A stretch of DNA of 64,000 nucleotides from an uncultured Coprococcus sp. (GCA_964488185.1 CAZATW010000001.1:19582-83581); one strand, 5' to 3'. Shown: positions 30,117-49,930, counted from the first letter of the stretch. Notes: generated from the sequence alone by a model not told the origin. Made by a program: numbers and translations.

Positions 30117-30145
30117 AAAAAGAGGCAGGTATCACTACCTGCCTC
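30117..30145 (-). terminator. Terminator of the pilus minor-pilin/adhesin operon
   Basis: GAGGCAGGTA-GTGA-TACCTGCCTC followed by TTTTT on the minus strand. Confidence 0.85.
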
Positions 30146-30168
30146 CTAAAATTATGTTTTCATTTGTT

Positions 30169-33100
30169 TTATGCCTGATTCAGTTTTTTCTCAGCTAATG
30201 CATCTATAGCCGGAATAACTTCATCGTTCTGAGTTAATTCAAACAATGGATCAGATGCTTTAATCTTAATCATTGCATAGGCAGGTGTTGTCTTACCTTC
30301 ATAGTAAACTTCTATTACTATGTATGTGTAATTACCACCATACGGCTGGAAGTATGAATCCTGAAGCTTGAGATTAGGATCCGTTCCACTTCTAAGCATA
30401 TCGGTTAGCTCTTTTTCAATCTCACTAATATCCTTTCCACCCTTAGATGTATATGACTTAATCAGAACATGTTCATCATTATCAATATATGACGGTCTGT
30501 TCTTATAACTTGAATCATCATAATCAAGATCATAATAAATATTAACTTTTGTAAGCTTTGTACCCTCAGGTATTGATACCTTCATATCAAATTCAGGAAT
30601 ATCTGTCTTATTGTCAACAGTTGTCTCATATACTGTCTGACCTTCAGCCACTGCTTCCTCATCCTTCTCAAGCTCGTCATCAGAAGTAAACGTACCTGTT
30701 GGCTCGTAAACCTTGATTGACGGTGTAGGAGGTACTGCTAAAGCACTATTTACAATAACATTGATAAACAGCTTTCTTTCATCATTGTTTCTTGTCGTCT
30801 TACCTGTAACTGATGAATGTCCGGCACCACAGTATGTAACTGCTCCGCTTCCGTATGAGGTTGTATAGATAAAGTAACCTTCCATTCCATCATATGGAGA
30901 AGCAGCATACTTGGAGGATCTGGTCTTTGCATCGGATGAATTATTTGAACCTGCAAGTGTATACCAAACGGTAATCTTATCACTTTCAAGATCAAGTGCA
31001 TATGTCTGCTGATGTGTACCTGCTATATTCAGCGATTCACCAATACTATATGGATAAAGTGTAATCAAACCTTCGTTAAGCCTGCTTGCTTTTACCGTCT
31101 CCGAACAAGCTGACTGGTCTGCATTTGCAGCTCCCGACCATGCTGTAGCCTGTGTAAATGATTCCTGTGCATATACATATGGAAGTGCTGTTGATTTACC
31201 GCCCTGATTACCATTATAATATAATGCCGTCATCGCAAGGCCACTGACATATAATGTAACGTCATTGCCCATTTTATTATAACTTGGATTTGTTGCACTT
31301 ACATTGGCATTAAAGCTGTTAATAATACCGCTACCCGCCTTCGTATTAAATGCATATGGTGTCATATAATATAAGCTTTCATCTGATGACTTAAACTCTA
31401 CATCTGTATATGAAGTACCATTATAAATTGGATTACCACCCGGATCAGCTTCTTTCCAAATGTATCCGGAAGTTCCTGCTGATGCAGCTCTTTTCGCAAC
31501 CCAAACTTCTCGACCCTGCTCTACTACATACAATTCCTCACAATTTTTGCTCGGATCATTCCACCAAATCAGGTCATAAACATATCCATCCTCTGCCAAG
31601 GTTCCCTGTACAAGTCCTGCCGGTGTAGCTGAAGTCACACTGCTTGCATAATCATTATTGGAAACCTTATAGCTATTTGCATTATTGGTCAGGTCAACAT
31701 GGAATCTATTCATTCCAACAACATCAAGCAATGACTTGGTAAGATTTACACTACCTGCATCCGCAAACGGTGTCATCGCATCATGGAAGAAGAACAAATC
31801 ACCGCCGGCTGACACATAATCAAGAATATAATTACATGTTGTCTGGTTAAAGTCTACCTTAAAGCCTCCAAATGAATCGGATGGTCCCAAAATCAGAATA
31901 GAATACATCTTCTTCATAAAGTCCTTACCGTAAGACCTTCTGAGATACTTATTGTACTCATCTCTTGCAAGAATTTCCTTATCCTTAACCTTTACATAAT
32001 CTGCATATAAATCTGCAAATTTCTGACCGTACATTGTAGGAATTTTCTTATTATTCCAATCAAATCCTGAGTTGTTACTATAAACAGGCCAGAATAACAG
32101 GTAATACTCATTGGTATCAATTACAAACTGAAGTATTTCTTTCTTCGTAGCATCAGATACACCACCCTTAAATCCACTGAAGAATCCTGAGTAGTTTACT
32201 GTTCCACTATATGTGCCATTCAATGAATCAAGTGCACCCTGAACATATTTCTGAATAGCCGTACGAGCAGGATCCACCTGTGCTGCAGCTGCAGAATATG
32301 CGGTAAGCTTTACAGGTACCTGTGCTGCATACTCAGCCTGAGTCAAACCGTCAACCTTACCACCGGCTTTCAGAGTCTCTGCCTCTGCTACCCAAGTGTC
32401 AAGGCAATCATAAACTGAGTCAACACCATCTTCCGTTTTAAATTTAGCCTGATTTGCTGATGCAACTACCATATCAAGATTAATATCATAATCATCTGCT
32501 ATCTCATCTGCAAGATTTGATAAATAGTCATCATTGCCTTCTCCAATATCATATTCAACAATACCGAATCTGTTTTCATGAAGACCAAGTGTAGCATACT
32601 GCGCAGCTGATACAGTATCAAGCTCAGTCTGATTTGCATAAGTATTATACTTTGCAATCTTATGAGCTGTCTGCGATGTTATATCAAAATATAACGTATC
32701 TGTAGCTGTCCATGATGTAGCACCCTGTCCCTCAGCCATAGTCTGAACCTGAAGAACATTGATTTCACTCTTTGAAACATTATTGTTAATGATTTTACTA
32801 AGACCTGTCTGTTCAGCTACTACTGTCTTTCCGGTAGCATCCTTAATAACAAGATACCATGAAGCAGCGCCGAAGAAATCCTGATCTACATTTAAACTTA
32901 CTGACTTCTCAACACCCGATGATACAATACCACTTGTATTATAATCATCAGAATTAAATGCCGTATTCTTATCCTTATCTACATAAAGCTCATACTTATA
33001 TTTAGAATCTGAACCGGTTACAGTAAATGTAAATGCCAAATTATTTGTCTTAATATATGTACTTGTTATTCCTTGTACATATTTTGTAGGCTTACTTGTG

Positions 33101-36100
33101 ATAGTAAGTCTTGTTCTGGTATTGGAATTGTTGACCAGATTATTAAGTGTATTGCTATAATCATTATTTAAGACTACAGCATATTTTTTAATTACATCAA
33201 TCTCTGAACCTGTAGTATACCAGTCATAACCCTGAGCATCTTCATCAAGATAACTCTTGTTTTCCTTTCGGTAATATGTGTAGTTTGTTTTTCCATACTC
33301 CTCAGACGTATTATCAATCATCTTTGTAGATGCCGGATCAAATCCCCACCAGACATTCGAACCATTTTTTCCTGTATATCTAGAATAGATATCTCCTATC
33401 AGTGTATACATCCTTGATGAAGGGTCAAGATACAGGTTGCCACGTTCAAGCTTACCGTTATTGTACCAGAAGCCCTGAAGCAGCTCCGTCTTTGACAATT
33501 TGTCTCCACTGGCATTTGTTCCCTGCATATTCTCATATACGGAAGAAAGCTCATTGCTTACTATTACCGGTCTGCCTGAACTAATATAATTTACCAATTC
33601 ATCATATTTGGTCTTCGTTAAGTCATTTCCGGCTTCTGCAATATAGGTATCCGTATAATATGTACCGCCAATATAAGGCGATGCCAACAACTTCGTACCT
33701 GTCACGGAACGGTCCATCTTATAGGTGCCTGCACCTTGCATCTTATTTATGAGTCCTGTATGATAGTACATCAAAAACGTAGGTAAACCTAAATAGGTAT
33801 AGCCAAATATGCTGCTGATTTGCAGCTGTCCGCCATACATCTCAGCCGGATTTCTGTCTAACGCACTGATATCACCACCAATATAAACCAAATCATATGT
33901 AGCAGCAATATCTTCCTTCATTCCGATAAGCGCCTCTGTAGAAACCTGCGTCAACTCGATATCACCATAATTAAGACCGTCGATTGCATATGCAATTTTT
34001 GCCTTTGTCAAATCAAACGCATAATATTCTGTCGATGCGGATGGAAGCTCCTCTTTTGCTTTTCCACTTTCAACATCGGACGGAACCGTATAATAATTAC
34101 CGGTTATCTTTGTCTTTCCATCACTCTTTGTTGTCCATGCAGTAGAAACTGATGGAAGGCTGCTCGCAACTTCTTCATCAATTGGATAATCAGGCTGAAT
34201 TTCAAGTACCTTGAACTTATTATCCGAGCCATCACGATATACACCTGCATTAATGATGTCTGCAATAGCCTTTGCAGATGGACTGTTTACAATGATTGTT
34301 GTACTTCCTGAACTACCAGTACTATTACCTGAGCCTTTTCCGTCACCGGCAGCAGAACTTACGATAACATATACGCCCTTTTCTACCGCATCACATAATG
34401 CATCATATGCAGTCTGACCGATCTCAGTAGAATAGCTACCTTTATCAATAAATATAAAATCATATTGTGTAAGATCTAATGGCTCAAAGCCCTGCTTTAA
34501 AGCCACCTGCTCTGTCGAATACACACTATAAAGGCTTTTTACATAATTAAAAACATCTGTGCTATTATCAAATTTCATATACTGATATAAAAAGTTATCC
34601 ATATAGTTATCCGGTTCATCAGTTACTTTATTTGAATAATCCTCATCAGTATTTACAGTAGTATAAAGATAGTTCTGCTGTTCTTCTGTTTCCTCACCAT
34701 TCTCATCAACAGCATTATCGACAACGAAATTATTATCACTTCTGCCGATTTTATAAGCAGTATACTTTTCATCAGAAGAAGATACCAACACAACATCATA
34801 TGTATAATCAGCATTTAATTTTGTAAACTCATACTTATAGGTGCATGTTCCATCTGAATTCTCTTCATAGTATTTACTATCACTATTTAACGCAAACTCA
34901 TAATGTGTTGAATCATCAAGACCAACATAATGATATACACCATTTTCATCCTTCGCTATAAGATATAGTTTCCAACCATCAAGACTGATTGTATTATCAC
35001 TATCTAGGGCCGGAATCACATATATACTTCCTGATATACTAGTTGTTTCTACATCTTTATAGTAGGAAGAAGCTAAACATATATCATCAAATGATGAGCC
35101 TGATGTAATAGCATTCATAAACTTTCCTGAATCTAATAAATAAAGATTAGCACCACTAGGAACATACGTTGCGCCATCATCATACATTAGTTCCGTGAGG
35201 ACACTATTTGATGCAGTATTAACAGCTTCCCATTTATTATTTTTATTATTAAATGAATAATCTGAAGCGGAAAACAATTCATTACTATTCATACTGCTCA
35301 TTGTATTAAACATTGCACTTGTTGTACCTTCAGAAATAATAAGGATATTGGCATTATCAAACTCCCATTCCTTTCTATCTCCTGTAATACCTTCTGCACT
35401 ACCTACCTTAGCATAATATGAATCTTCTGTTTCGCTAGTAACATTTTTATTCAAAAAGTCCTGAATAGACATGTCGTCATACCATTTATAATATGTATTA
35501 CGCTGTATGTATTCTTTTCCACCTTGATTTACGCCACGCTCAGCAGTAAGTATAAAGTCTGATATCGTCTTTGTCGTGTCAGGCATATCAGGAGTTTTTG
35601 TTCCTTGTTCTGCTTCTTCATAAAGGGTTTTAAAGAAATCCTCTTCTGTAACCAAGACATTGTCATATCTCGCCATCAGATTTTTTGTAATAAGCTTATA
35701 TGCCAGAGCACCCATTCGATAGGTATCATTATTACCTGAAATCGTAGTCGGGTCATCTGTACATAACGCTTTTCTACATATTGCGATTGGATGTCTGTCT
35801 GTAGTAGCATAAACATCCAACCAATTATATAACTCTTCACTAAGGTCTGCTCCGGACGCACCATAGTCCAATGAATTTGATGAAAAAATATAAATCATAT
35901 CAGCTCTGCCCAAAATCTCCTGAGCTGAAGTATTCATTGAATTAAGCTCACTTACCGTAACAGATGTAAGCTGTACAGCTCCCTCTGCCATTTCGGCATT
36001 TGTTATCGTCTTATATCCATTAAATACTGCTAATCTGAAATATTCATCACCATATATATATCTCCAAAGATATGATGTATTGCCCCAGTCACTTTCTGAT

Positions 36101-36426
36101 GTAACCTTTCCACTATAGTTAGCTGCTGTAACCTTTGCAGTAAGTGCTGTATCTGTTGCAGCTACTGATGACAATCCATCAGGAAGAATCTGTACTACGC
36201 GAAACTTATCGTCTCCTGTCGCTTTAAGACCTGCGTCATTAGAATTAATGACTGCAAGATCTATATTTGAATATCCGGTCAAGCTAGAACCAGAACTCGA
36301 ACCAGCATTCCCATTTGCTGTAGGAGAGCCTGAATTAGCCAAAGTGAAATTTACAAAAATAGAGCAAACTACAAGTGTAAATACAATAGCTATTGATGAT
36401 AAAATAACCTTTTTATTCTTAAACAC
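30169..36426 (-). CDS. 2085-aa secreted protein of the type IV pilus locus (DUF5057-like; putative PilY1-equivalent tip adhesin)
   Basis: N-terminal signal/TM, GTG start with GGAGGG RBS, 'FKVLEIQP' motif that I recall from DUF5057 proteins (not HMM-verified). Last gene of the minor pilin operon. Confidence 0.7.
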   Translation of the reverse strand: MFKNKKVILSSIAIVFTLVVCSIFVNFTLANSGSPTANGNAGSSSGSSLTGYSNIDLAVINSNDAGLKATGDDKFRVVQILPDGLSSVAATDTALTAKVTAANYSGKVTSESDWGNTSYLWRYIYGDEYFRLAVFNGYKTITNAEMAEGAVQLTSVTVSELNSMNTSAQEILGRADMIYIFSSNSLDYGASGADLSEELYNWLDVYATTDRHPIAICRKALCTDDPTTISGNNDTYRMGALAYKLITKNLMARYDNVLVTEEDFFKTLYEEAEQGTKTPDMPDTTKTISDFILTAERGVNQGGKEYIQRNTYYKWYDDMSIQDFLNKNVTSETEDSYYAKVGSAEGITGDRKEWEFDNANILIISEGTTSAMFNTMSSMNSNELFSASDYSFNNKNNKWEAVNTASNSVLTELMYDDGATYVPSGANLYLLDSGKFMNAITSGSSFDDICLASSYYKDVETTSISGSIYVIPALDSDNTISLDGWKLYLIAKDENGVYHYVGLDDSTHYEFALNSDSKYYEENSDGTCTYKYEFTKLNADYTYDVVLVSSSDEKYTAYKIGRSDNNFVVDNAVDENGEETEEQQNYLYTTVNTDEDYSNKVTDEPDNYMDNFLYQYMKFDNSTDVFNYVKSLYSVYSTEQVALKQGFEPLDLTQYDFIFIDKGSYSTEIGQTAYDALCDAVEKGVYVIVSSAAGDGKGSGNSTGSSGSTTIIVNSPSAKAIADIINAGVYRDGSDNKFKVLEIQPDYPIDEEVASSLPSVSTAWTTKSDGKTKITGNYYTVPSDVESGKAKEELPSASTEYYAFDLTKAKIAYAIDGLNYGDIELTQVSTEALIGMKEDIAATYDLVYIGGDISALDRNPAEMYGGQLQISSIFGYTYLGLPTFLMYYHTGLINKMQGAGTYKMDRSVTGTKLLASPYIGGTYYTDTYIAEAGNDLTKTKYDELVNYISSGRPVIVSNELSSVYENMQGTNASGDKLSKTELLQGFWYNNGKLERGNLYLDPSSRMYTLIGDIYSRYTGKNGSNVWWGFDPASTKMIDNTSEEYGKTNYTYYRKENKSYLDEDAQGYDWYTTGSEIDVIKKYAVVLNNDYSNTLNNLVNNSNTRTRLTITSKPTKYVQGITSTYIKTNNLAFTFTVTGSDSKYKYELYVDKDKNTAFNSDDYNTSGIVSSGVEKSVSLNVDQDFFGAASWYLVIKDATGKTVVAEQTGLSKIINNNVSKSEINVLQVQTMAEGQGATSWTATDTLYFDITSQTAHKIAKYNTYANQTELDTVSAAQYATLGLHENRFGIVEYDIGEGNDDYLSNLADEIADDYDINLDMVVASANQAKFKTEDGVDSVYDCLDTWVAEAETLKAGGKVDGLTQAEYAAQVPVKLTAYSAAAAQVDPARTAIQKYVQGALDSLNGTYSGTVNYSGFFSGFKGGVSDATKKEILQFVIDTNEYYLLFWPVYSNNSGFDWNNKKIPTMYGQKFADLYADYVKVKDKEILARDEYNKYLRRSYGKDFMKKMYSILILGPSDSFGGFKVDFNQTTCNYILDYVSAGGDLFFFHDAMTPFADAGSVNLTKSLLDVVGMNRFHVDLTNNANSYKVSNNDYASSVTSATPAGLVQGTLAEDGYVYDLIWWNDPSKNCEELYVVEQGREVWVAKRAASAGTSGYIWKEADPGGNPIYNGTSYTDVEFKSSDESLYYMTPYAFNTKAGSGIINSFNANVSATNPSYNKMGNDVTLYVSGLAMTALYYNGNQGGKSTALPYVYAQESFTQATAWSGAANADQSACSETVKASRLNEGLITLYPYSIGESLNIAGTHQQTYALDLESDKITVWYTLAGSNNSSDAKTRSSKYAASPYDGMEGYFIYTTSYGSGAVTYCGAGHSSVTGKTTRNNDERKLFINVIVNSALAVPPTPSIKVYEPTGTFTSDDELEKDEEAVAEGQTVYETTVDNKTDIPEFDMKVSIPEGTKLTKVNIYYDLDYDDSSYKNRPSYIDNDEHVLIKSYTSKGGKDISEIEKELTDMLRSGTDPNLKLQDSYFQPYGGNYTYIVIEVYYEGKTTPAYAMIKIKASDPLFELTQNDEVIPAIDALAEKKLNQA

Positions 36427-36444
36427 CAGTCTGTCCCTCCTTCA

Positions 36445-37305
36445 TTAATTCCATTCATGACTCTTAAGTACGAATGAATTTCTAAGACTCACTACCCCAT
36501 TTATATCATATGATGTACCTGCTTTAGGGTCGCTAAATTCCATAATAATTGCAAAAGTTCCTGTCTCAGGATTTACCTGTAATTGGAATTTGTCTACATT
36601 CTTACATAGGATATTTCCTTCTTCTGAACTATAATCCAAATAATATCTGGAATATTGTTCATTGAATGACACCTCATCTGATGAATATCTATATACATAT
36701 ATATTTCTGTCAGTTTCATCATACTTCAATGTGCAGTAGGTATAAATATTATCCTTCGTTGTTTCATCTATACCCGAAGCATATTTCATTGAAATATACT
36801 TTACGTCTATACACGTCTGTTCATCTGATGATGGTGTAGATGACTCCAAAAACGGTTTGATATCTGCAATATCATAACATTCCGACACATCTGGAACTGA
36901 ACCCGGGCCGGCAGCGCTCTGCTCTCTTTTTACAAGACTGCCTTTTTTCACAAGAACACCGTCTCCATCTTTCATATCCTCAATTCCTGTTCCGTCATAG
37001 CTTCCCGGAATAACAAAGTTTGCATCTTTTTTACTGTATGACGTTACTCCGGATGTAGTCACGCCTACCCATGCCTGACCCCGTATTCTTACATCAGTTG
37101 CACCCATCAGCATATCTGCTATCGCATCATACGTTTCTGTTGCCTGAGTCTGTAATTTTTTTCTTGATTTTACCTTACTATTGGAGGCCACCGTTGAACC
37201 TATCAGTGTCACCACAGCTACCATAAAAATACTTAAGATACCTATGTAAAGGATAAGCTCAATGAATGTGAAACCCCTGTTATCAGATTTTTTCAACATC
37301 CACAC
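36445..37305 (-). CDS. Minor pilin (PilW-like), class III signal peptide
   Basis: 'DNRG|FTFIELILYIGILSIFMVAV' with G|F cleavage and E5. Confidence 0.85.
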   Translation of the reverse strand: MWMLKKSDNRGFTFIELILYIGILSIFMVAVVTLIGSTVASNSKVKSRKKLQTQATETYDAIADMLMGATDVRIRGQAWVGVTTSGVTSYSKKDANFVIPGSYDGTGIEDMKDGDGVLVKKGSLVKREQSAAGPGSVPDVSECYDIADIKPFLESSTPSSDEQTCIDVKYISMKYASGIDETTKDNIYTYCTLKYDETDRNIYVYRYSSDEVSFNEQYSRYYLDYSSEEGNILCKNVDKFQLQVNPETGTFAIIMEFSDPKAGTSYDINGVVSLRNSFVLKSHEWN

Positions 37306-37308
37306 CTC

Positions 37309-37821
37309 CTATTTACCAAAGTAATGGCTTCCAGTAGATTCGTTAAGTGTAACTCTTCCAACAGCACCAGAACCACTCTTTCGGAACTCATATACTCCTG
37401 CTCCACTAACTACTGAACCATCCGCTTTTTTTAATTTGATTATCTGATTTCCTTCAAGCTTTATTGCACTCGTTTCACCCGTCTTGGTATAGTAAATATC
37501 TACTCTATCCATTTTGAGTTCTGCTGATGTTGAAGTCTGTGTCCATTTAGTCTCTGTTCCGTCAGAGCTTGTGCCAAAATAGACTTCATAACCATCGTCT
37601 ACTCTTTTTATCATCATTGCAGTATCTGCATCCTGTGCTCTCGTCCTAGTCGATAATACTGAAATTGTCGTATCAAAATTCTCTAATGCCGCACTAGCCT
37701 TTGCAGAGTTTATAGAGCTTATTGTCAACATCGCTATACCCGAAAGGATTGCAATAATTGCTATTACTATAATCAGTTCTACCAGGGAGTATCCATTATC
37801 ATTTTTTAATCTTTTTTTCAT
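37309..37821 (-). CDS. Minor pilin (FimU/PilH-like)
   Basis: 'NDNG|YSLVELIIVIAIIAILSGIA' with E5. Tyr rather than Phe at +1. Confidence 0.85.
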   Translation of the reverse strand: MKKRLKNDNGYSLVELIIVIAIIAILSGIAMLTISSINSAKASAALENFDTTISVLSTRTRAQDADTAMMIKRVDDGYEVYFGTSSDGTETKWTQTSTSAELKMDRVDIYYTKTGETSAIKLEGNQIIKLKKADGSVVSGAGVYEFRKSGSGAVGRVTLNESTGSHYFGK

Positions 37822-37833
37822 GCTCTATCCTCC

Positions 37834-40659
37834 CTATTCCACATTCTTCTTCCAATTTTCAAAAGCAAGAATGTCCTGATAAGAGATATCCGAAATAGAT
37901 GCTCCTGTAACTGATGAGCTGCTTCCCTCTGTCGATGCCTTATACTGGAGTAATATCTCTTTTGTTATAAGATTAACATCCTCATCTGTGCTCTCTGCAC
38001 ATGACTGCAACAGATTTGCAACATATGTCGCATCGGCTGATAGCGATATATCATAATTGCACTTAAGCTTAGAACCAGTTATAATTAGCCCCCTAAAGGA
38101 TTTTACAGATTTATCAAACGTAACATTTCCTGTAGCTATAATAATACCCTGAAGCTCTCCTTCTTCATTACTTGCACTAAGTGTTACGTCTCCTTTATTA
38201 ATAATTACTTTGCTATCACCAACGTCCGCATCAATGCTGACATTATGAGTGAATATATATGGGTAATTTACATAATTATGAAGTGGCGTAATACTATAAT
38301 CATATGAATAACTGTCATTATTCTTATTATAGTTATATGTATATTTTCCGCCACTCTGCTCTGTATATCCTGCAATTTCCCATGCAGAAATATTAAGCTT
38401 TGTCGCTTCATCAATCTTATCTGTTACGTCAAGATGATCCTTCATATTGATATACATATAAGTAAGGAAATTACTGATACGCTGCTCTGATGTATATGCA
38501 GTTCTGTTACTTGTGCTGTTCAGATTTGGATTGGTTGCCAATTCAGCAGATGCATCTTTCAAAGCTTCATATGTAAGATTATTTGCTCCCTGACTCTTAT
38601 TTCCAAGCAACATTGTAAATGTCTTTGATGCAGAAGCATTTTTTAGTGCCGTCTCAACATTTAGTGTCGTATCCGCAGAAGACTTATAGAACAATGAATC
38701 ATCTGCCTTCTGATATGTTACTGCCCCATTTGCATTTACTAGGCTTGTGTCTATATCCACATTTCCGGAAGACGGCAGAACAAGCTTTACCTCAAACTCT
38801 TCATAATTTGCTACATTATAAAGCTTTCCGGTAATTGCGTCTCCATATCCGCTGTTAAACATATCATAATACTTCTCGGCAAACTCTTCTGCGTTACTAA
38901 TGCCATCGTCATCATCATCACCTGCAGCAATATACAGATAATAATAGTCATGACCTGATACAGTCTGTTTAATCGCTGTTAGCTGATCACTTGAATCAAG
39001 GAAATCCTGATAAAGACTTCTCATCGTTGTATCAGCAGCAAATGTAGCAGGGAACCTCAGCTTAATCGTTGTAATTCCCGTATCAGCATCTGTATTTTCA
39101 CTGTTCGCAACAGGCTCCCACTGTGTAAGGAAAATTAACTGGTTAGATTTTACATCAAGTGACTGACCTGTCGAATAATCTTTCAGGGATGTAAATGCAA
39201 AATCCGCATTTTCATCTACCGTTATGCTTGTATCAGCAGGATTTACAGTTGATGCCGCTAACTTTGAAAACTCAATATATGACTTGCCTGCAATATAAAG
39301 TGAATCAAGGTTTTTTAAATTGAGTGTCGAGCCTTTACCGTTTACGATAACGGCACTGTCACTAAAGTGTGACTTAAGCTCATAGCCTGTTGCCAAATAA
39401 CCGGCTGTACGAAGAAGATTAACACTTCTTATATCATCTGCCGTATAGCTGTAACCAAAATATCTTCCTTTTGTAAATATCAGACTGGACTGTTCCGCAT
39501 TAAGCTCTGTATCATCATAAATATATGCGTTTGCCGCTGCGGTAATATTACCGCCCTTCGTACCCGCTATAATAATATTGTCTGCCCAAAGCTCTGACAA
39601 AAGTGAAGAACGACCAGAAAGACTTATTTCCGAGCCATTAAATGCAGAAAGTGCTCCCGGACAAACAATTATATCAGAAAGCATGGTAAGTCTTGCATTT
39701 TCACCATCAACATAAATTCCTGAATATACACTACTGTTTGTAGAGCCCCATGTGGTAGTCTTCTTCTTGTCATACTCCTCAGTAACCTTTGTGCTCGCCT
39801 TAGCATTATAGTCTTTATTATAATAATCGGAGGCTGCATAAATGTTACCTTTGATAGTTACATCCGTTCCCGTTGTAGCATCAATAACCTCTATACCCAT
39901 ATCTGCAAGTATTGCATAATTATATAGGCTATCCGATGCCGCATTAGCCATGTCAAATGAAACATTATATTCAGGCTCGACAAGAACAAGATCCGTTGTT
40001 ATAGACTGTTCATATGTTCCATAGGTTGCTCCTGCATCCGTCGGATCCATATTAATACTTCTCTTTACGCTTATATTCTTGAATGTTATTTTATTAACTG
40101 AGTCAAAATCAAAGCCGCTTTCCTTTATATCAGGTGCTATTTTATCATTTGCATAGAAGCCTCTCTTTAGTGTTTTTCCATTAGTGTCATGGAATACAAT
40201 CTGCAAATTAGTAGCATCCAAAGTTACGTTGTCATCCGATATAAACGACATCAAAGTACTCTTTAGCTTTCCTATATTCGTATAATTTTCATCTGAAATA
40301 ATACCCCTTATAAATAGTTTCTTAAACAATTTATTTGCTTCATCATTATCCAGATTCTTATACTCTTTGTTTTCATCATCATAAACAACAACTAATTCTG
40401 CCGTTGTTGTATATGCCTGATATAAGTACTCATTTGTAGTAGCACCTATACCTGCATATATTTCATCCATAGCCTTCTCAACACTATAAAAGTTATTCAA
40501 GGAATTCACTTTATAAAACTTTAGCTTATATGCCATCATTGCGCCAAGCAATAATGCTGAAACTAATATGCTCAGAAAGGTTGTAGAAACAATAACGAGA
40601 ACAAAGCTAGAACCATGATTATTCATTTTGCGAAGTCTATGTTTTATCTTCTTAATCAT
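37834..40659 (-). CDS. Giant (941 aa) PilX/GspK-like minor pilin
   Basis: 'NNHG|SSFVLVIVSTTFLSILV' lacks E5, as PilX/K-class pilins do. 'NFYSVEKAMDEI' follows the TM. Confidence 0.75.
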   Translation of the reverse strand: MIKKIKHRLRKMNNHGSSFVLVIVSTTFLSILVSALLLGAMMAYKLKFYKVNSLNNFYSVEKAMDEIYAGIGATTNEYLYQAYTTTAELVVVYDDENKEYKNLDNDEANKLFKKLFIRGIISDENYTNIGKLKSTLMSFISDDNVTLDATNLQIVFHDTNGKTLKRGFYANDKIAPDIKESGFDFDSVNKITFKNISVKRSINMDPTDAGATYGTYEQSITTDLVLVEPEYNVSFDMANAASDSLYNYAILADMGIEVIDATTGTDVTIKGNIYAASDYYNKDYNAKASTKVTEEYDKKKTTTWGSTNSSVYSGIYVDGENARLTMLSDIIVCPGALSAFNGSEISLSGRSSLLSELWADNIIIAGTKGGNITAAANAYIYDDTELNAEQSSLIFTKGRYFGYSYTADDIRSVNLLRTAGYLATGYELKSHFSDSAVIVNGKGSTLNLKNLDSLYIAGKSYIEFSKLAASTVNPADTSITVDENADFAFTSLKDYSTGQSLDVKSNQLIFLTQWEPVANSENTDADTGITTIKLRFPATFAADTTMRSLYQDFLDSSDQLTAIKQTVSGHDYYYLYIAAGDDDDDGISNAEEFAEKYYDMFNSGYGDAITGKLYNVANYEEFEVKLVLPSSGNVDIDTSLVNANGAVTYQKADDSLFYKSSADTTLNVETALKNASASKTFTMLLGNKSQGANNLTYEALKDASAELATNPNLNSTSNRTAYTSEQRISNFLTYMYINMKDHLDVTDKIDEATKLNISAWEIAGYTEQSGGKYTYNYNKNNDSYSYDYSITPLHNYVNYPYIFTHNVSIDADVGDSKVIINKGDVTLSASNEEGELQGIIIATGNVTFDKSVKSFRGLIITGSKLKCNYDISLSADATYVANLLQSCAESTDEDVNLITKEILLQYKASTEGSSSSVTGASISDISYQDILAFENWKKNVE

Positions 40660-41999
40660 TATTCCTTCCCCCTTGTTCCTGATATTTTAGTTTCGTGTCC
40701 TTCACTATCAGTAATCGTAACATTTATATCATATAAATATATTGAATCATTCTCGTCCTGTGATACATCCATAACATTTATATCTGAGTTAAGATTATCT
40801 GTAACAAAATTCGAATATACTTTGAGCTTATTAGTATCTCCTGCTTCCAAATTTACTCTTACTTTTACATTCTTCTGAGTAACTTTATGTTCACTGTTTC
40901 TATATACCAATTGTTCTATATCCGTAACTCCAAACTGTTGGCATATTATATCTTCGTAATCCTTATCTATATTAGATGCCGTTTCGAAAATATATATTTT
41001 CGGAGTAACATTGTCTCCTACAAGAGAAGAATTGTCTATGGTAATATAATCCTCAGAACAATATTTGCCATTATATATAGCAGGTTCATATAAAAGATAA
41101 ATAGGTGGAATCTCATCAAACTCCTGTCTGTATACTACTCCATTGCCATATGCTCCATCTGGTTTAAAAATATTTTTTGAGTTGCTGGTATAATCTGCAG
41201 CTATCACAGCTATCTTTGTCTGATCTTCATATCTTACCTCACATTCGATAACATATTTAGAGCCAGATTTTGATATTCTTATCGTAGTATACTTATTAAA
41301 AGAATCAGATGAAAAGATATTATCCCCTGAAAGATATTGATTATAATAAACAGTATAGTTTTTAATCAAATCAAGCTTAACATCTTTAAAATGCTCATAT
41401 GCCTGATTATCCAAATTATTTTCACTTACACCACTATTCTGGCCTGTATAAGTCGCACCCGTAATAATAGCAACCTGTTTATTATCCAAATTTCTAATAG
41501 TACCCGTAGCTGGCCTTGTTTCTATTGCATTGCCCTCGCCATCAATTTTATATGACTGTGTCTTGCTGTCATATACATACCCCTTTGAAGATACTGCATA
41601 AGGGGCACTGCTTACCGTGACCACACATGTGTATTTCTCAAAATCCGTTCCTATAGCCACATCATTACATGTGTATGTGTCAACCGTATATGATACGGTA
41701 GATGAATCCGGAAGCGTTATTGAGTTGATTTCTGATGTTGCATTTTTATTGAATACATACTCACTTGAAGATGATGCATCCCCATCTGAAATCGTTATAG
41801 TATCATTAAGGTCACACACCTTAAAATTTTCCATTAACTCCTCAGCCATCTCTGCTGCATACTGATTTTTGGTTGTCTCTTTGTTAGTACTTATAGCAGA
41901 TATCAGCTGAGTAGTAAGTGGAATAATTAAAATCGCAAATACAGCAATGGCAACAATCACTTCTACCAAGCTAAAGCCTTTATTATTTATTTTTGCCAT
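40659..41999 (-). CDS. Large (446 aa) PilV-like minor pilin
   Basis: 'NNKG|FSLVEVIVAIAVFAILII' with G|F and E5, followed by a long C-terminal extension. Confidence 0.82.
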   Translation of the reverse strand: MAKINNKGFSLVEVIVAIAVFAILIIPLTTQLISAISTNKETTKNQYAAEMAEELMENFKVCDLNDTITISDGDASSSSEYVFNKNATSEINSITLPDSSTVSYTVDTYTCNDVAIGTDFEKYTCVVTVSSAPYAVSSKGYVYDSKTQSYKIDGEGNAIETRPATGTIRNLDNKQVAIITGATYTGQNSGVSENNLDNQAYEHFKDVKLDLIKNYTVYYNQYLSGDNIFSSDSFNKYTTIRISKSGSKYVIECEVRYEDQTKIAVIAADYTSNSKNIFKPDGAYGNGVVYRQEFDEIPPIYLLYEPAIYNGKYCSEDYITIDNSSLVGDNVTPKIYIFETASNIDKDYEDIICQQFGVTDIEQLVYRNSEHKVTQKNVKVRVNLEAGDTNKLKVYSNFVTDNLNSDINVMDVSQDENDSIYLYDINVTITDSEGHETKISGTRGKE

Positions 42000-42022: not shown

Positions 42023-42781
42023 TTACTCTGCAGTTGTATCTCCGGTTGTTACTGTTTGTTTTACTGTCGGATTGCCAAATATATTATTTGTACCTGTCTG
42101 GACATTTACATCCGCATGGTCTGTAGTTCTGTCACCACCATTAACCGCATATGACGTAAATACAAGGTTTCCTTCATAATACCCCTCGTTATCATTAAAA
42201 GATATACTGATTTCATCAAGAGTCATTCTGAAATCACCGTCCTTGATATAATCAATAACAGACTTAATATCATTATAATCGCCTGTATAGGTCACAGGAA
42301 ACGTAGCTGAATAACAGTTATAACCATTTGCCGTAGCAACCATCTCGCCGTTTTCCGAGGTTTCTTCATTTTCAGCAGGTTCTGTATCAAGTGACACATC
42401 TCCAACGGCACCGGAGCCAAGTGTGTAGAACAATGTCTCCTCACCCATGGTTACACTTGGGAAATCCAATTTGTATTCATCCTTTATTCCCTGAAGATAC
42501 ATAATTGTATTATCCTGATATATCTCAGCAGGAAATTGTTTTAACAATTCCTCGTATTCAGCCTTATAGAAGGCTGTATCATCTATATACTGCTGTCTGT
42601 TATTGTCCTTTGCCTTTAAATCATTATAATATGTCTGACGTTCAGCTTTTTCGCTATCAATATTCTTCTTATCATCAAAATTTCCCATTGCAAGGAATCT
42701 GATAGGTAAGAAAATAATAGCTATACCTAATATAAATAAAAGTAAATTTCTTTGTCCCTTAGTAACTGTACTCATGTTCAT
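42023..42781 (-). CDS. pilO: PilO-like alignment protein
   Basis: N-terminal TM, coiled-coil region, ferredoxin-like C-terminus 'YTGDYNDIKSVIDYI'. Follows pilMN. Confidence 0.65.
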   Translation of the reverse strand: MNMSTVTKGQRNLLLFILGIAIIFLPIRFLAMGNFDDKKNIDSEKAERQTYYNDLKAKDNNRQQYIDDTAFYKAEYEELLKQFPAEIYQDNTIMYLQGIKDEYKLDFPSVTMGEETLFYTLGSGAVGDVSLDTEPAENEETSENGEMVATANGYNCYSATFPVTYTGDYNDIKSVIDYIKDGDFRMTLDEISISFNDNEGYYEGNLVFTSYAVNGGDRTTDHADVNVQTGTNNIFGNPTVKQTVTTGDTTAE

Positions 42782-42789
42782 GCCCTCCT

Positions 42790-44415
42790 CTACTCTATTG
42801 TTACAGCATTCTCATCAGCTGCAAGCTCATCTAAAAGAGCAGCTGTAGGATCTACATATATGCATGATACTGTAAAATCATATGTAACGCTATTTGTCTG
42901 TTCATCAACAACCTCATTTATAGAACCTATAAAAGTATTGTCAATACATTCAATATCCTTAAGATTGATTGCAAATGCTGCAATATCCTCATACTTTGGT
43001 GTCGTACCAGTTATACTAATACCTGTCGAATCTGAATTGAATGCTGTTATACTAATACCCTTTGGCATCTTGTCTTCAAGTTCTGTTATAAGTGTTCCAA
43101 CATACTCATTAAGGTTCTCTGTATAGCTATACATACTCATAGCATCAACATAAACACTCTCCGCTGCTTCATAATCCTGCACCACAATTTCAATATCTCT
43201 TATAGCCTCAATATCTTTGTTTACCTTATCAAGCTCATCCTGCGCCTTGTTCTTTGCTATGTAAGAATAAGCTGTAACGCCTCCGGCAACAATAATAGCT
43301 AATATCAGAAAAACTATAACAAGTGGCGTGGTATCAAATCCATTTCCGCTTCCGCTCTTTGCGCCTGTTTCTGTAAGAGCAAAGCCCATAGGTGCAAAAG
43401 CAGCGCCGATAGGAACCATGAGATATACAGGATTATAAATCTTTAAGTCAATTTTAGGGTCAAATTTTATATTGTACAGACTGTCCATAACTCTTGTAGA
43501 TACGTTCAGCTGTACCTTGAATAAGCCGTCTATTCCTTTAATAAGGGCGCCATCGCCTGTAAGGAATACATCATCTATTGGCTTATCCGGATTCTTGGAT
43601 GTGAAGAAATCCATCACACGACCAATGTTGTTTATAAGATATCTGAAAGCGCCTGTTATAGCATTATCATCAAAATCTACTGTAAGAAGTCTCTCATTCT
43701 GGAGCAGGGTCATGGCTGTCGTAGCATCTACACCCTTCGCATCCATAACTTCATTCACTACAACATTTGTACCATATGGTACTGTTCTCTGTAAGAGCAG
43801 TGTGTCTCCCTTCACAATGTTAAGTACTGTTGATTCACTACCTAACTGAATAACCATAGTAGTCATATTCTCGCTGGTCTGAGTCTTGATCAGCTGAAGC
43901 ATACTGTTACCAATGTAGTCAAGTGCAACCACCTTAAGACCTGCCATGGCAGCTACATCATAGTAAGAACGTACCATGTTCTCCGGAGCCGCAACAGCAA
44001 GCACTCTTAACTGTTTATTGTTTTCTTCATCAGTAACTGTTTCTAATACAGAATGTGATACTACGTAATCTTCTATATTAACAGGGAAATACTCTGATGA
44101 GTTCGCATTAATAATTCCTTTAATTTTGTTTTCTTTAACGAAAGGCACAACGACCTCTCTGTTAACGATTTTTGTAGAGGTAAGAACGAATATAGCGTTC
44201 TTATTTGATATTCCGTTTGCACTAAGCTGTCCTTTGATAGCTTCTGCTATCCTTTCCTTGTCTCTGATAACACCATCTTCGTATGAATCCTCCGGAGTCT
44301 CGAAGATAATGGCATTATGTACTGTCGATTGTTTCTTGTTTGAAGCCGTAGCTTCAACAATTGTAATACTTTCATTTGTAATGTCGATTGTTAAAACTTT
44401 GTTATTACTCGCCAT
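42790..44415 (-). CDS. pilM: PilM-PilN fusion
   Basis: Actin-like PilM ('LTIDI', 'YFPVNIEDYV', 'RTVPYG', 'VFLTGDGA.IKGI'), then a TM and a PilN-like domain ('MPKGISITAF', 'GISITG'). Confidence 0.85.
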   Translation of the reverse strand: MASNNKVLTIDITNESITIVEATASNKKQSTVHNAIIFETPEDSYEDGVIRDKERIAEAIKGQLSANGISNKNAIFVLTSTKIVNREVVVPFVKENKIKGIINANSSEYFPVNIEDYVVSHSVLETVTDEENNKQLRVLAVAAPENMVRSYYDVAAMAGLKVVALDYIGNSMLQLIKTQTSENMTTMVIQLGSESTVLNIVKGDTLLLQRTVPYGTNVVVNEVMDAKGVDATTAMTLLQNERLLTVDFDDNAITGAFRYLINNIGRVMDFFTSKNPDKPIDDVFLTGDGALIKGIDGLFKVQLNVSTRVMDSLYNIKFDPKIDLKIYNPVYLMVPIGAAFAPMGFALTETGAKSGSGNGFDTTPLVIVFLILAIIVAGGVTAYSYIAKNKAQDELDKVNKDIEAIRDIEIVVQDYEAAESVYVDAMSMYSYTENLNEYVGTLITELEDKMPKGISITAFNSDSTGISITGTTPKYEDIAAFAINLKDIECIDNTFIGSINEVVDEQTNSVTYDFTVSCIYVDPTAALLDELAADENAVTIE

Positions 44416-44854
44416 TTTAAATAGCCTCCCTCGCTAATCAGTAGTTTTTTTGAAGATAAAATCTTCTAATTGCCTGAGTACCAGCTTACCGCTGTTCACC
44501 CTATGTTATTATTATCTGTCCACATCTATGCGGACAAAAAGGTCAACACTATTCTGTCACCCTTTTTAAAAGTATGCACTTTCCACAAATACATCGACTC
44601 ATATGCATAAAGCAGAAAATGCCACTACTAAATAAAGTACCAGCCTAATAGTAAGCCAGCTGCCGCCATAAGTTTGTTGTCGATTGCTAAATCGCATATA
44701 CTTCATGCGGATTTGCAAGCAAGAAAACCGCTGACTGCAAAAGAGCGAGTATGAATAAAAAGCAATGCCTTCCACTTCATAATCAACTCAAAAACCATAC
44801 AGTAAGCCATCTCATCATCTTTCCGGCCACTATATTGATAAAAAGTATAATATT

Positions 44855-44921
44855 AGCATGGAACGGTAATAATATGTACAAAACTACGAGGAATGTAATA
44901 TACACAATTACCGTTCATGCT
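44855..44921. repeat. Long inverted repeat downstream of the major pilin
   Basis: AGCATGGAACGGTAAT (44855-44870) and ATTACCGTTCATGCT (44907-44921), with one bulge. Confidence 0.8.
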
Positions 44922-44987
44922 TCACCTATGCATTTTTTCTATCCCTATAGAATAGATTTGCGATTTTCACAAGCAAATCAACTTTTC

Positions 44988-45407
44988 TTACTTGTAAGCA
45001 GCATCTACATCAGGATATAACTCTGAGCTATTTACAGATACTGTAAATGTCTTTAAGTCAGATGAAAGCTGAATTACAAATTTTTGGCCTTTGTCATACT
45101 TTGGCTTAAATGAGCTCGTTCCAAGCTGGTCAGAAACTTCTGATGTGAATGCGTCACTCGAACCAAGCTGAGTACCATCATCATTTACTGTGTATGTTGC
45201 GCCAGCGGTTGCAGCGTCATAAGCATCTTCTACTGAAAGTGCATTTGTTACAGCTGTTGCAATTGTCTGTGCATTTGAAACATCTGTTGATCTTCTTGAC
45301 TTTGCAATGTACTTAATGAGTGCCGGTGCAAGAGCGCCTGCAAGAATTGCCATAATAGCAATTACGATAATTAACTCTACCAATGAGAAACCTTTGTTGT
45401 TCTTCAT
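44988..45407 (-). CDS. pilA: Major type IV pilin
   Basis: 'MKNNKG|FSLVELIIVIAIMAILAGALAPALIKY', 139 aa, own intergenic leader, AAGGAG RBS. Confidence 0.9.
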   Translation of the reverse strand: MKNNKGFSLVELIIVIAIMAILAGALAPALIKYIAKSRRSTDVSNAQTIATAVTNALSVEDAYDAATAGATYTVNDDGTQLGSSDAFTSEVSDQLGTSSFKPKYDKGQKFVIQLSSDLKTFTVSVNSSELYPDVDAAYK

Positions 45408-45590: not shown

Positions 45591-46799
45591 TTACACCTGA
45601 TCGAGAGCACTGTACATACTCATAATCGGTCCGTATACGGCTGCTACGATCATACCTACAACGCAGGCAAGAAGAACCATAATCATAGGCTCCATCGCTG
45701 CTGTAAGTGCATTTGTTGCATTCTCCACTTCTTCATCATAGTAGTCCGCAACCTTGCTAAGCATTTCTTCGATATCACCTGTTTCCTCACCTATCTTTGT
45801 CATAGCTGATAACATATTCGGAAGCATCTCCATATCCTTGAGAGGCTTCGAAAGAGGAATACCCTTTGCAACCTGAGTCTTTGCATCCATAAGGCCATCT
45901 CTTATGATTTTATTATCCATCATCTTGGCAACCTGTTCTACGGAATCAATCATGGAAATACCGGATGCCATCAGGGTACTCATTGTTCTTGCAAATCTTG
46001 CACAAGCTGTCTTAATGTTCAGATTTCCAAAGATAGGCGCCTTGAGTCCTATATTTGCAAAAAGCTGTTCTCCAAAAGGAGTCTTTTTGAAAATCTTAAT
46101 TCCAAATACAATCGCTGCAACGATTATAATAAGAAGCCACCATTTGTATTTCACAAAGTCAGCTGCCGCCACCATTATACGGGTAGCAAGCGGAAGCTCT
46201 GTTCCCATTTCTTCAAACATACTTGAAAAGTTAGGAATAACTGCAACAAGCACTACTATAATGACGATAACCATAACGATAAGTACCACTATTGGATATG
46301 TCATCGCGCCCTTAATCTTGGAAGTAAGAGCATTATCTTTCTCAAAGTGCTCTACCAATCTGTCCAGACATATTTCAAGGTTACCTGACATTTCGCCAGC
46401 CGCTACCATGTTTATCATGATAGGAGGGAACACGTCCGGATTTACTCTTAACGCATCTGCAAGAGTTCCTCCCTTTTCTACATATGTTCTGGCATCTGCT
46501 ATAGCCTTCTTTAATGTTTTGTTCTCTATCTGATCCCCCATCAACTCAAGTGCCGCTATAATAGTAACACCCGCTTTGATTACGGCAGAGAACTGTTTGC
46601 AGAATACAGCCAAATCCCTTGATTTAACCTTCTTCTTAAATCCTACTCCAGCCAAAGGACTGCTTTGTTCTGTCAGACTCATAATTGAATAGCCTTCCGA
46701 CTTCAATTTTTTCTCTGCACCGTCCCTGTTTGGAGCCTCGATGGTACCTTTTTTATTCTTACCATCTCTGTCAACAACCTTGTAATTAAATACTGCCAT
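45591..46799 (-). CDS. pilC: Type IV pilus platform protein PilC (GspF family)
   Basis: 'FCKQFSAVIKAGV', 'AAGEMSGNL', 'GAMTYP', 'IGEETG', 'MEPMI'. Start moved to MAVFNY (46799), which has a GGAGG RBS. Confidence 0.95.
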   Translation of the reverse strand: MAVFNYKVVDRDGKNKKGTIEAPNRDGAEKKLKSEGYSIMSLTEQSSPLAGVGFKKKVKSRDLAVFCKQFSAVIKAGVTIIAALELMGDQIENKTLKKAIADARTYVEKGGTLADALRVNPDVFPPIMINMVAAGEMSGNLEICLDRLVEHFEKDNALTSKIKGAMTYPIVVLIVMVIVIIVVLVAVIPNFSSMFEEMGTELPLATRIMVAAADFVKYKWWLLIIIVAAIVFGIKIFKKTPFGEQLFANIGLKAPIFGNLNIKTACARFARTMSTLMASGISMIDSVEQVAKMMDNKIIRDGLMDAKTQVAKGIPLSKPLKDMEMLPNMLSAMTKIGEETGDIEEMLSKVADYYDEEVENATNALTAAMEPMIMVLLACVVGMIVAAVYGPIMSMYSALDQV

Positions 46800-46892
46800 T
46801 GTTTTTCCTCCGACCCAATCAATATTCTTATGTTGCGTATATTTACATAAAAACAACGCAAATATACAATCTACATGTAATTATATAAGTTT

Positions 46893-49880: not shown

Positions 49881-49930
49881 ATCGGCAAATCTCCTCCTAA
49901 ATATAAAAATATACAAATATCTATTGAGGT

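Follow-up and report, generated by a model that had tools for sequence, protein, structure and literature searches.

Type IV pili are near-universal in the Clostridia, and the Lachnospiraceae are dominant butyrate producers of human and animal guts. Here, we describe a stretch of 64,000 nt from an uncultured Coprococcus sp. (GCA_964488185.1 CAZATW010000001.1:19582-83581), referred to as the window and numbered from its first letter. It carries a type IV pilus operon on the minus strand, and the final gene of this operon encodes a very large exported protein which we consider a candidate for the pilus tip. The open reading frame (30169-36426, minus strand) comprises 2085 codons, begins with GTG and is preceded by the sequence AGGAGG 9 nt upstream. 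It is a real gene for a large protein of the DUF5057 family, as judged from the reading frame and ribosome binding site, a Pfam match, full-length homologues, contigs from RNA runs and the properties of the product.

All genes of the operon lie on the minus strand, in the order pilB-pilT-pilC-pilA-pilMN-pilO, four minor pilins, the large-protein gene and a terminator. The first three, pilB (48144-49916), pilT (46990-48051) and pilC (45591-46856; 82-96% identical among loci of the Coprococcus clade), were assigned by visual inspection of the translated genes. The major pilin gene pilA (44988-45407) was recognized from its translation and the Pfam N_methyl family. It is followed by a pilM-pilN gene (42790-44415) with matches to Pfam PilM_2 (E 4e-31) and PilN (E 3e-8) and to NCBIfam pilM above its cut-off, and by a PilO-like gene (42023-42781). 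The fusion of pilM and pilN into a single gene of 541 amino acids (aa) is present in all related loci.

The minor pilin module directly precedes the large-protein gene. Its first member (446 aa; 40659-41999) has a PilV/GspI-like N-terminus and matches Pfam N_methyl as well as, below the cut-off, NCBIfam PilV (E 1.7e-7). The second is a pilin-like protein of 941 aa (37834-40659), the third a GspH/FimU-like minor pilin of 170 aa (37309-37821; Pfam N_methyl; NCBIfam GspH at E 1e-7, below the cut-off), and the fourth a minor pilin of 286 aa in the position of PilW/GspJ (36445-37305; Pfam N_methyl), which neighbors the large-protein gene in all related loci. The N-methylation motif is thus found in three of the four, all except the 941-aa protein. 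The latter matched no family in Pfam or NCBIfam and was identified from its sequence, its place as a conserved neighbor and its C-terminus. Its leader reads ...NNHG/SSFVLVIV and lacks Glu5, a trait of GspK/PilX-like proteins, and it is probably a GspK/PilX-type subunit of unusual size. Its C-terminus, ...NWKKNVE, belongs to a motif, (Y/F)xD(I/V)(L/V)xFxNW(K/M)KNV(E/D), that is strongly conserved in most related loci. From pilMN through the large-protein gene the intergenic gaps do not exceed 23 nt, and one gene pair overlaps by 1 nt; 18 nt separate the stop codon of the 286-aa pilin gene from the start of the large-protein gene. An intrinsic-terminator-like hairpin with a 12-bp stem and a T run (30120-30147, minus strand) begins 22 nt past the stop codon of the large-protein gene, and the pilus operon ends at this predicted structure.

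The product of the final gene has the features of an exported protein without an anchor. Its only hydrophobic segment in a Kyte-Doolittle analysis covers aa 5-30 and coincides with a predicted signal peptide (aa 1-30; 36337-36426) composed of KNKK, a hydrophobic core of 22 residues and the predicted signal peptidase I site NFTLA/NS. The end of the signal peptide follows a motif kept across the family, S/T-F/Y-S/T-x-A. In the 123 relatives over which all conservation counts given here were made, Ala30 at position -1 is present in 108, Ser or Thr occupies position -3, and conservation drops sharply downstream of the predicted cleavage site. As judged from sequence, with no dedicated predictor applied, the product would be a non-pilin protein with a type I signal peptide, and its mature form would comprise about 2055 aa with a mass of 227 kDa and an acidic isoelectric point (pI) of 4.4. 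A motif scan found no LPxTG, hydropathy analysis no C-terminal hydrophobic segment, and Pfam no SLH, LysM, choline-binding, dockerin or other anchor or wall-binding domain, the latter neither in this protein nor in 22 relatives. An earlier interpretation made from the DNA alone, here called the sequence-only reading, had described a signal peptide and the lack of LPXTG, SLH and dockerin motifs, and both descriptions hold. Readings as a sortase substrate or an S-layer protein were rejected given the missing LPxTG, C-terminal hydrophobic segment and wall-binding domain; a prepilin-type N-terminus was rejected given that there is neither a Gly at position -1 nor a Glu5. In the role proposed below, the large protein, having no anchor, would be held at the cell by protein-protein contact only.

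The only family above threshold in Pfam is DUF5057 (PF16480; 36.4 bits against a cut-off of 27.9, E 5.3e-9; aa 934-1549), as the sequence-only reading had guessed, and NCBIfam holds no model matching the protein. DUF5057 is also matched by 20 of 23 diverse relatives, with a best E value of 1.5e-29. The Pfam model is not a single structural domain because it spans the end of one module, a beta-sandwich and separate pieces of another module: its positions 1-126 correspond to the last part of module M3, 140-246 to the sandwich Ig1 and 251-378 to two pieces of module M4 of the architecture described below. In a homology search with the whole protein the matches were dominated by Coprococcus sequences, the closest being "DUF5057 domain-containing proteins" of 78% and 52% identity, which assigns the window to a Coprococcus. 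When a profile built on aa 1000-2085 was compared with 1.84 billion representative proteins, it matched 740 clusters (at 50% identity) at E <=1e-3 and 187 at E <=1e-30, so that the family comprises at least 740 such clusters. Most cluster representatives are 1700-2200 aa long, and the profile match reaches their C-terminus. Distant relatives can be aligned over the full length at 23-31% identity, and some bear additional Big_1, MG4, CarboxypepD_reg or mucin-binding-like inserts. Literature searches retrieved no mention of DUF5057 and no tip protein for the type IVa pili of Lachnospiraceae, Coprococcus or other Gram-positive bacteria.

An indication of function comes from the genomic context of these relatives. 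All loci of Coprococcus genomes with upstream DNA keep the order pilC-pilA-pilMN-pilO, four pilins and large-protein gene, and aroEK, pepP and efp come next in most of them. Two genome scans added 65 further loci (L019-L083), 61 of them with upstream DNA, at 25-47% identity; nearly all belong to Lachnospiraceae other than Coprococcus, such as Wujia, "Clostridium sp. CAG", Eubacterium sp. MSJ-21 and many metagenome-assembled genomes (MAGs). In all 61, the large-protein gene directly follows pilMN, pilO and genes for a pilin of ~500 aa, a GspK-like protein of ~950 aa, a pilin of ~190 aa and a pilin of ~310 aa. The genes on the other side vary, with aroEK/pepP/efp present in some loci and efp inverted or absent elsewhere. 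Since the linkage to the minor pilins survives down to 25-30% identity while the downstream flank changes, it is strong evidence for a functional tie between the large protein and the minor pilins. The link to pili proposed by the sequence-only reading is therefore upheld, the gene adjoining four minor pilins here and in every related locus examined. Among these loci, L040, L067, L076 and L078 come from MAGs labelled "Bacteroides sp." that bear a pilus locus of Lachnospiraceae type (PilMN 60-67% identical to that of the window); most likely, these are mis-binned or mislabelled contigs.

The architecture of the large protein was derived from AlphaFold models of two overlapping parts (aa 36-1215 and aa 1100-2085), built on alignments of 15 sequences and reaching a mean predicted local distance difference test score (pLDDT) of 60 and 54, respectively. 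Usable in these models are the beta-sandwiches, a helical insert and modules 1 and 2, while modules 3 and 4 are too poor. The overall make-up is that of three or four related alpha/beta modules (M1 to M4) and three beta-sandwich domains. A conserved peptide at aa 53-63 (S-N-I-D-L-A-V-I-N-S-N; 36238-36270, minus strand, as for all the following segments) lies between variable linkers. M1 (aa 61-345; 35392-36246), with the motifs FRVVQILP and ADMIYI, is alpha/beta by DSSP at a pLDDT of 60-85 and varies between genera; strands and helices alternate over aa 75-450. M2 (aa 346-732; 34231-35391; YDFIFID, VYVIVSS) is degenerate and the most variable part of the protein, with 4-7% identity to distant relatives and 55-69% gaps, and contains an inserted beta-sandwich at aa ~455-575 (pLDDT 67-87). 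M3 (aa 733-1100; 33127-34230), again alpha/beta, is highly conserved and carries FKVLEIQPDYP, YDLVYIGG and NGNDLT...YISSGRPVIV. The beta-sandwich Ig1 (Ig, immunoglobulin) follows at aa 1101-1216 (32779-33126; pLDDT ~80) and holds the DKDKN loop (aa 1150-1154; 32965-32979), whose form in the family is D-x-D-G-N-S/T-x-F. M4 (aa 1217-1905; 30712-32778) begins with the strand INVLQVQ, contains YSILILG...GGDLFFFHD and has a helical insert at aa ~1340-1510 (pLDDT 72-92) and a variable one at aa ~1586-1675; it also holds the block with the highest conservation in the family, THQQ...YCGAGHS...NNDERKLFINVIVNS. The C-terminal beta-sandwich (aa 1906-2058; 30253-30711), all-beta by DSSP at a pLDDT of 70-88, is conserved in the family and is followed by a tail (aa 2059-2085; 30172-30252; pLDDT <50) consisting of DPLFELT and a clade-specific extension of 20 residues that ends in AEKKLNQA.

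Repeated alpha/beta modules had been claimed in the sequence-only reading on the grounds of recurring strand motifs. The motifs are present, with first strands FRVVQILP at aa 75, FKVLEIQP at aa 738 and INVLQVQ at aa 1222, YD-type strands ADMIYI at aa 175, YDFIFID at aa 655, YDLVYIG at aa 844 and YSILILG at aa 1508, and the DxDxN loop DKDKN at aa 1150. Their proposed pairing applies in part: each of the three first strands has its YD strand, whereas YDFIFID sits in the degenerate M2 with no first-strand counterpart. The repeat was seen neither by self-BLASTP nor by hhalign with profiles of 15 sequences. With profiles of 123 sequences, M1-M3, M3-M4 and M1-M4 each gave two to three collinear local matches with scores of 17.7-31 for the native alignments, against at most 16 for reversed and at most 17 for column-shuffled controls; the matches fall on the first strand, the YD strand and a later helix with a G-rich strand. 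The match of M2 to M3 is marginal (19.8 versus 16.7 for the reversed control). Judged by these profile comparisons, the internal repeat is clearly above the controls and beyond chance, and together with the DSSP assignments it bears out the claimed modules. An Ig-like C-terminus had also been proposed, and aa ~1905-2058 are indeed modelled as a beta-sandwich; for the C-terminal half, Foldseek gave Ig-like beta-sandwich matches and no others, the output being silent on which of its two sandwich domains was aligned.

Foldseek against the PDB returned generic beta-sandwich matches exclusively (GbpA, Calx-CBD1, CARDB, RbmA, SpaC and carbohydrate-binding modules; the first four were among those for Ig1), with no propeller and nothing for the alpha/beta parts, over much of which the models are poor. 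Pfam gave no match to the PilY1/PilC propeller in the large protein at E <=0.1, and for the protein together with 22 relatives neither this propeller nor vWA appeared at E <=10 among the 25 most-matched families. Identities as PilY1 or as a vWA protein were rejected on the lack of a Pfam match among these families even at E 10, in line with the non-PilY1 nature claimed before. Sequence searches of the PDB with the whole protein, a family profile of 23 sequences and consensus sequences of the modules yielded nothing credible; we treated a peptidase C51 chain (PDB, E 0.052) and Peptidase_C39_2 (Pfam, E 0.024-0.27) as noise. After deletion of the inserts, the family consensus of M4 matched ABC_transp_aux (E 0.011; 15.5 bits, cut-off 34.7) and ThuA (E 0.075; 13.7 bits, cut-off 33.4), both on the element YDxVVLG...GGSLLLFHD, and one relative each matched ThuA and GATase_3 at E 0.08. 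ABC_transp_aux (GldG type) and ThuA are class I glutamine amidotransferase-like families. By eye, M4 shares with the ThuA/GldG ("GIFT") type the series YDxhhhG...helix...GGxhhhhHD, a later GAGH and a final helix ...LFxNxIxN, and differs from it in large helical and beta inserts and in the lack of an assignable catalytic triad. Because both matches lie below the cut-offs, a GATase1/ThuA/GldG-like fold of the modules is a lead only; the GATase/flavodoxin-like fold of the sequence-only reading is thereby weakly supported, the models being too poor for a fold search of these regions.

Conservation is distributed very unevenly along the protein. Compared with distant relatives (overall identity ~27%), aa 100-650 are hypervariable, with 2-24% identity per window of 50 residues and many gaps, while identity rises to 42-49% at aa 700-750 and 800-850 and to 49-54% at aa 1800-1900. 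Invariant residues are L741, E742, P745, P748, D845 and G850 in M3, D1150 of the DKDKN loop, and N1784, N1880, E1883 and R1884 in M4. Near-invariant polar residues are dense in M4 and include H1283, N1304, D1525, H1548/D1549, H1576 and N1784, further T1804/H1805/Q1807, D1812/E1814, D1846, C1866/H1870 and N1880-R1884. The strand expected to form the nucleophile elbow reads DLFFFHD and has no Cys; a conserved C1866-x3-H1870 lies elsewhere in the sequence. Such a set of H, D, E, N, R and C residues, together with the sub-threshold likeness to ThuA/GldG-type families, would suit a co-expressed surface or secreted enzyme or glycan-binding protein acting on host or dietary glycans, perhaps delivered by the pilus in the manner of type II secretion substrates or TcpF. 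We regard this as distinctly improbable: no catalytic family and no solved enzyme was matched, all loci place the gene behind minor pilins rather than near genes for carbohydrate use, and, in Gram-positive bacteria with no outer membrane, a Sec substrate needs no pilus for its release. A putative metal site bears on this alternative from both sides, being widespread in the family and lost in the clade studied here.

The residues in question are a Cys-x-x-Cys pair at aa 1248/1251 (LYFCTECQQA) and a His at aa 1285 (HEH), which occur in 98 of the 123 relatives. All three are absent in 23 members, among them the protein of the window (D1248, S1251, N1285), and two members are mixed; in the window the corresponding positions are 32665-32685 (aa 1248-1254) and 32572-32574 (aa 1285). 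This all-or-none pattern suggests a metal-binding site, possibly for zinc, that was lost in the Coprococcus clade, with C1866 retained.

Both mature termini carry short conserved motifs that are disordered in the monomer models. At the N-terminus, the family consensus is T-N-I-D-x-I-I-x-N-S, with I55 in 114 and D56 in 121 of the 123 relatives (pLDDT <50). At the C-terminus it is R-I-K-I-x-L-x3-L-F-D-L-T, with L2061 and L2064 in 118. The protein ends exactly at the Thr of LFDLT in 72 of the 123, and the others add 6-29 residues; many of the extended tails end in ...D(I/M)TD(K/R)xKFNI, and those of the Coprococcus clade in ...DxIAEKKxxxA. These motifs bear on the notion of a free-standing cell-surface adhesin that is only transcribed from the pilus promoter and is neither physically attached to pili nor involved in their assembly. 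Many Gram-positive adhesins resemble the large protein in size, acidic pI, Ig-like domains and variability, but a protein of this kind would be expected neither to lack an anchor of any known type, nor to conserve both termini as short motifs, nor to hold its slot behind the last minor pilin over such a range of divergence, and we consider this explanation very unlikely.

The type of C-terminal tail follows clades and is largely paired with the C-terminal form of the 286-aa-type pilin (L020-L083). Tails ending in LFDLT go with the pilin end ...RNSYVLKxK, and ...DITDKxKFNI tails with a longer ...TVRPQKLYKK... or a Gly/Ser/Thr/Pro-rich pilin end, L020 being an exception. The pairing could reflect co-adaptation or mere shared ancestry, which are inseparable here.

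The rate of change of the large protein was compared with that of its neighbors over 46 loci. Its mean pairwise distance (0.66) lies within the range of the minor pilins (0.61-0.70), that of PilMN being 0.35. The C-terminal third evolves at about the rate of PilO (0.57 versus 0.58), and this would also suit a part of the pilus machine located in the envelope rather than in the fiber. Such a part would aid the start of the fiber or its passage through peptidoglycan, be it by forming a collar, by remodelling the wall or by chaperoning the bulky minor pilins. The operon linkage is conserved equally under this explanation, an additional envelope factor is plausible for Gram-positive type IV pili, which have no secretin, the hydrophobic core of 22 residues could serve as an uncleaved signal anchor, and the polar cluster of M4 could be an active site. 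It appears unlikely nonetheless, given that conservation of Ala at -1 and of Ser/Thr at -3 points to cleavage, that Pfam shows no wall-binding or peptidoglycan-hydrolase domain, and that a hypervariable N-terminal third bearing lineage-specific Ig-like and mucin-binding-like inserts typifies exposed adhesins rather than components of a machine.

Evidence for transcription comes from sequencing runs. Runs with near-identical words were gut metagenomes of sheep, rat and rabbit. In two RNA-type runs, contigs that are 90-99% alike (most 90-95%) cover segments of the large-protein gene and, at 36030-36560 and 35826-36636, run across its border with the upstream pilin gene. Transcription, and co-transcription with this pilin gene, are thereby supported, with the reservation that the contigs are assemblies of close relatives and may include carried-over DNA. 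The contig depth was 0.5-9 on the large-protein gene, as on the genes downstream of pilA, versus ~140 on pilA itself in the same run, a difference in keeping with a minor component. A non-coding gap of 570 nt (44416-44987) lies between pilA and pilMN and contains a terminator-like hairpin at 44639-44660 (minus strand); the drop in depth past pilA would agree with transcription stopping in part behind this gene for the major pilin.

Taken together, we favor, with a probability of roughly 0.55, a role of the large protein as a non-pilin accessory subunit in the tip or priming complex of the Lachnospiraceae type IVa pilus, analogous but not homologous to PilY1 and MshQ. Its tight placement in the operon, the terminator, the conserved linkage to minor pilins and the pilin-like rate of divergence argue for this role, and so do features predicted from the protein sequence, namely the polarity of a conserved C-terminal and a variable N-terminal part as in PilY1, export without an anchor, and the conserved, disordered termini. 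In the proposed mechanism, the protein would be exported by Sec and cut by signal peptidase I after Ala30. Lacking a membrane or wall anchor, it would be held by binding to the minor-pilin initiation complex encoded just upstream, formed by the 446-aa PilV-like, 941-aa GspK/PilX-like, 170-aa GspH-like and 286-aa PilW-like proteins. Docking may occur through the conserved C-terminal third (M4 core, C-terminal sandwich and ...LFxLT), through the N-terminal T-N-I-D peptide, or both. By analogy, this complex would prime fiber assembly and end up at the pilus tip, where the hypervariable N-terminal modules (aa ~100-650) and the lineage-specific Ig-like inserts would form the surface for contact and adhesion in the gut; the sequence-only reading likewise envisaged a tip adhesin that may bind glycans or host surfaces.

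Several points weigh against this proposal. The association of the large protein with pili is drawn from gene context, and a globular tip protein of 227 kDa would have to cross the Gram-positive wall. The correlation of its distance matrix with those of the 446-aa and 941-aa pilins, the highest obtained (r 0.91; partial r 0.64-0.65 after allowing for PilMN), counts in favor of the proposal but may be inflated by fast-evolving proteins saturating alike. In the Coprococcus clade, the tail past LFELT is modelled, at low confidence, as a helix and not as a strand. Under the published docking model, the conserved end ...NWKKNVE of the 941-aa pilin could itself supply the last strand, so that no partner would be needed. 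Finally, the sequence-only reading took the modules to be non-catalytic, but the dense invariant polar residues of M4 could belong to an enzyme or a metal site just as well as to an interface.

Known tip proteins offer several points of comparison. The premise of the sequence-only reading that type IVa pilus loci end in a large PilY1/PilC adhesin holds for Gram-negative systems and is not established beyond them. Like PilY1/PilC, the large protein is a large non-pilin with a Sec signal peptide encoded at the end of the core minor-pilin gene set, its N-terminal part is variable while its C-terminal part and extreme C-terminus are conserved, and it has a conserved Asp-rich loop, here a putative calcium binder, which would correspond to the calcium site of PilY1. 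It differs in having neither propeller nor vWA domain and no detected sequence or fold relation, in being twice the size, in its composition of alpha/beta modules and beta-sandwiches, and in a Gram-positive host without a secretin. Although unrelated to PilY1, it is the best candidate for its Gram-positive counterpart. MshQ of the Vibrio cholerae MSHA pilus is likewise a large non-PilY1 protein encoded directly after minor pilins of the GspI/J/K type; it has no sequence relation to the large protein (no match to an MshQ-type family in Pfam or NCBIfam), measures ~1200 aa and belongs to a Gram-negative bacterium. The last ~10 residues of PilC/PilY1 dock as an added strand on a PilK-type minor pilin, and for the unrelated MshQ (1200 aa) docking of the last residues on a PilK-type pilin was found by modelling (PMC13533445). 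The status of MshQ as a functional PilY1 analogue with C-terminal docking has been proposed from synteny and modelling only (PMC13533445). The argument made here for the large protein follows the same line of reasoning. Bulky tip modules also give adhesion in CpaL/TadG of Tad pili and in PilB/PilC of Streptococcus sanguinis (PMC13533445, PMC8179133). Unlike the large protein with its ordinary signal peptide and no prepilin motif, these have a pilin-like N-terminus and are polymerised into the fiber.

A broader reading, which we hold tentatively and at somewhat less than even odds, joins these observations. Here, the DUF5057 giants would form a new class of tip or priming proteins specific to Gram-positive type IV pili and independent of PilY1/PilC, which dock by a short terminal peptide (...LFDLT-COOH and/or T-N-I-D). 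A hypervariable GATase1-like head would set what gut Lachnospiraceae stick to, and in most of the family a metal-dependent CxxC+His site in M4 might allow the tip to sense or process a ligand. In any case, a large family of unknown function is now tied to the minor-pilin module of the Lachnospiraceae pilus operon. This provides a testable candidate for a tip or priming subunit and determinant of adhesion specificity, a functional label for DUF5057, and a second independent test case for the proposed rule of terminal-peptide docking in tip complexes. If exposed and hypervariable, the large protein would be a likely target of host immunoglobulin A and of pilus-specific phages.

The pilus operon is flanked by housekeeping genes. 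Those for a U32 peptidase, an O-methyltransferase and RNase J lie upstream, and on the downstream side there are a putative aroE-aroK fusion, pepP, efp and the spoIIIA operon. The gene directly after the terminator (28467-29837, minus strand) looks, as judged by eye, like a fusion of aroE (shikimate dehydrogenase) with aroK (shikimate kinase; Walker motif GFMGCGKST). On the opposite strand, a reading frame for 122 aa (29781-30149, plus strand) crosses the terminator and the intergenic region. It is probably not a gene, and the predicted product has a high content of Arg, Ser, Cys and His. The spoIIIA sporulation operon (20500-26480, minus strand), located downstream of efp, was recognized by Pfam matches to AA, AB, AE and AH, and its presence implies that the organism forms spores or once did so. 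At the edge of the window, positions 1-2000 have a G+C content of 0.30, compared with 0.36-0.46 elsewhere in the window.

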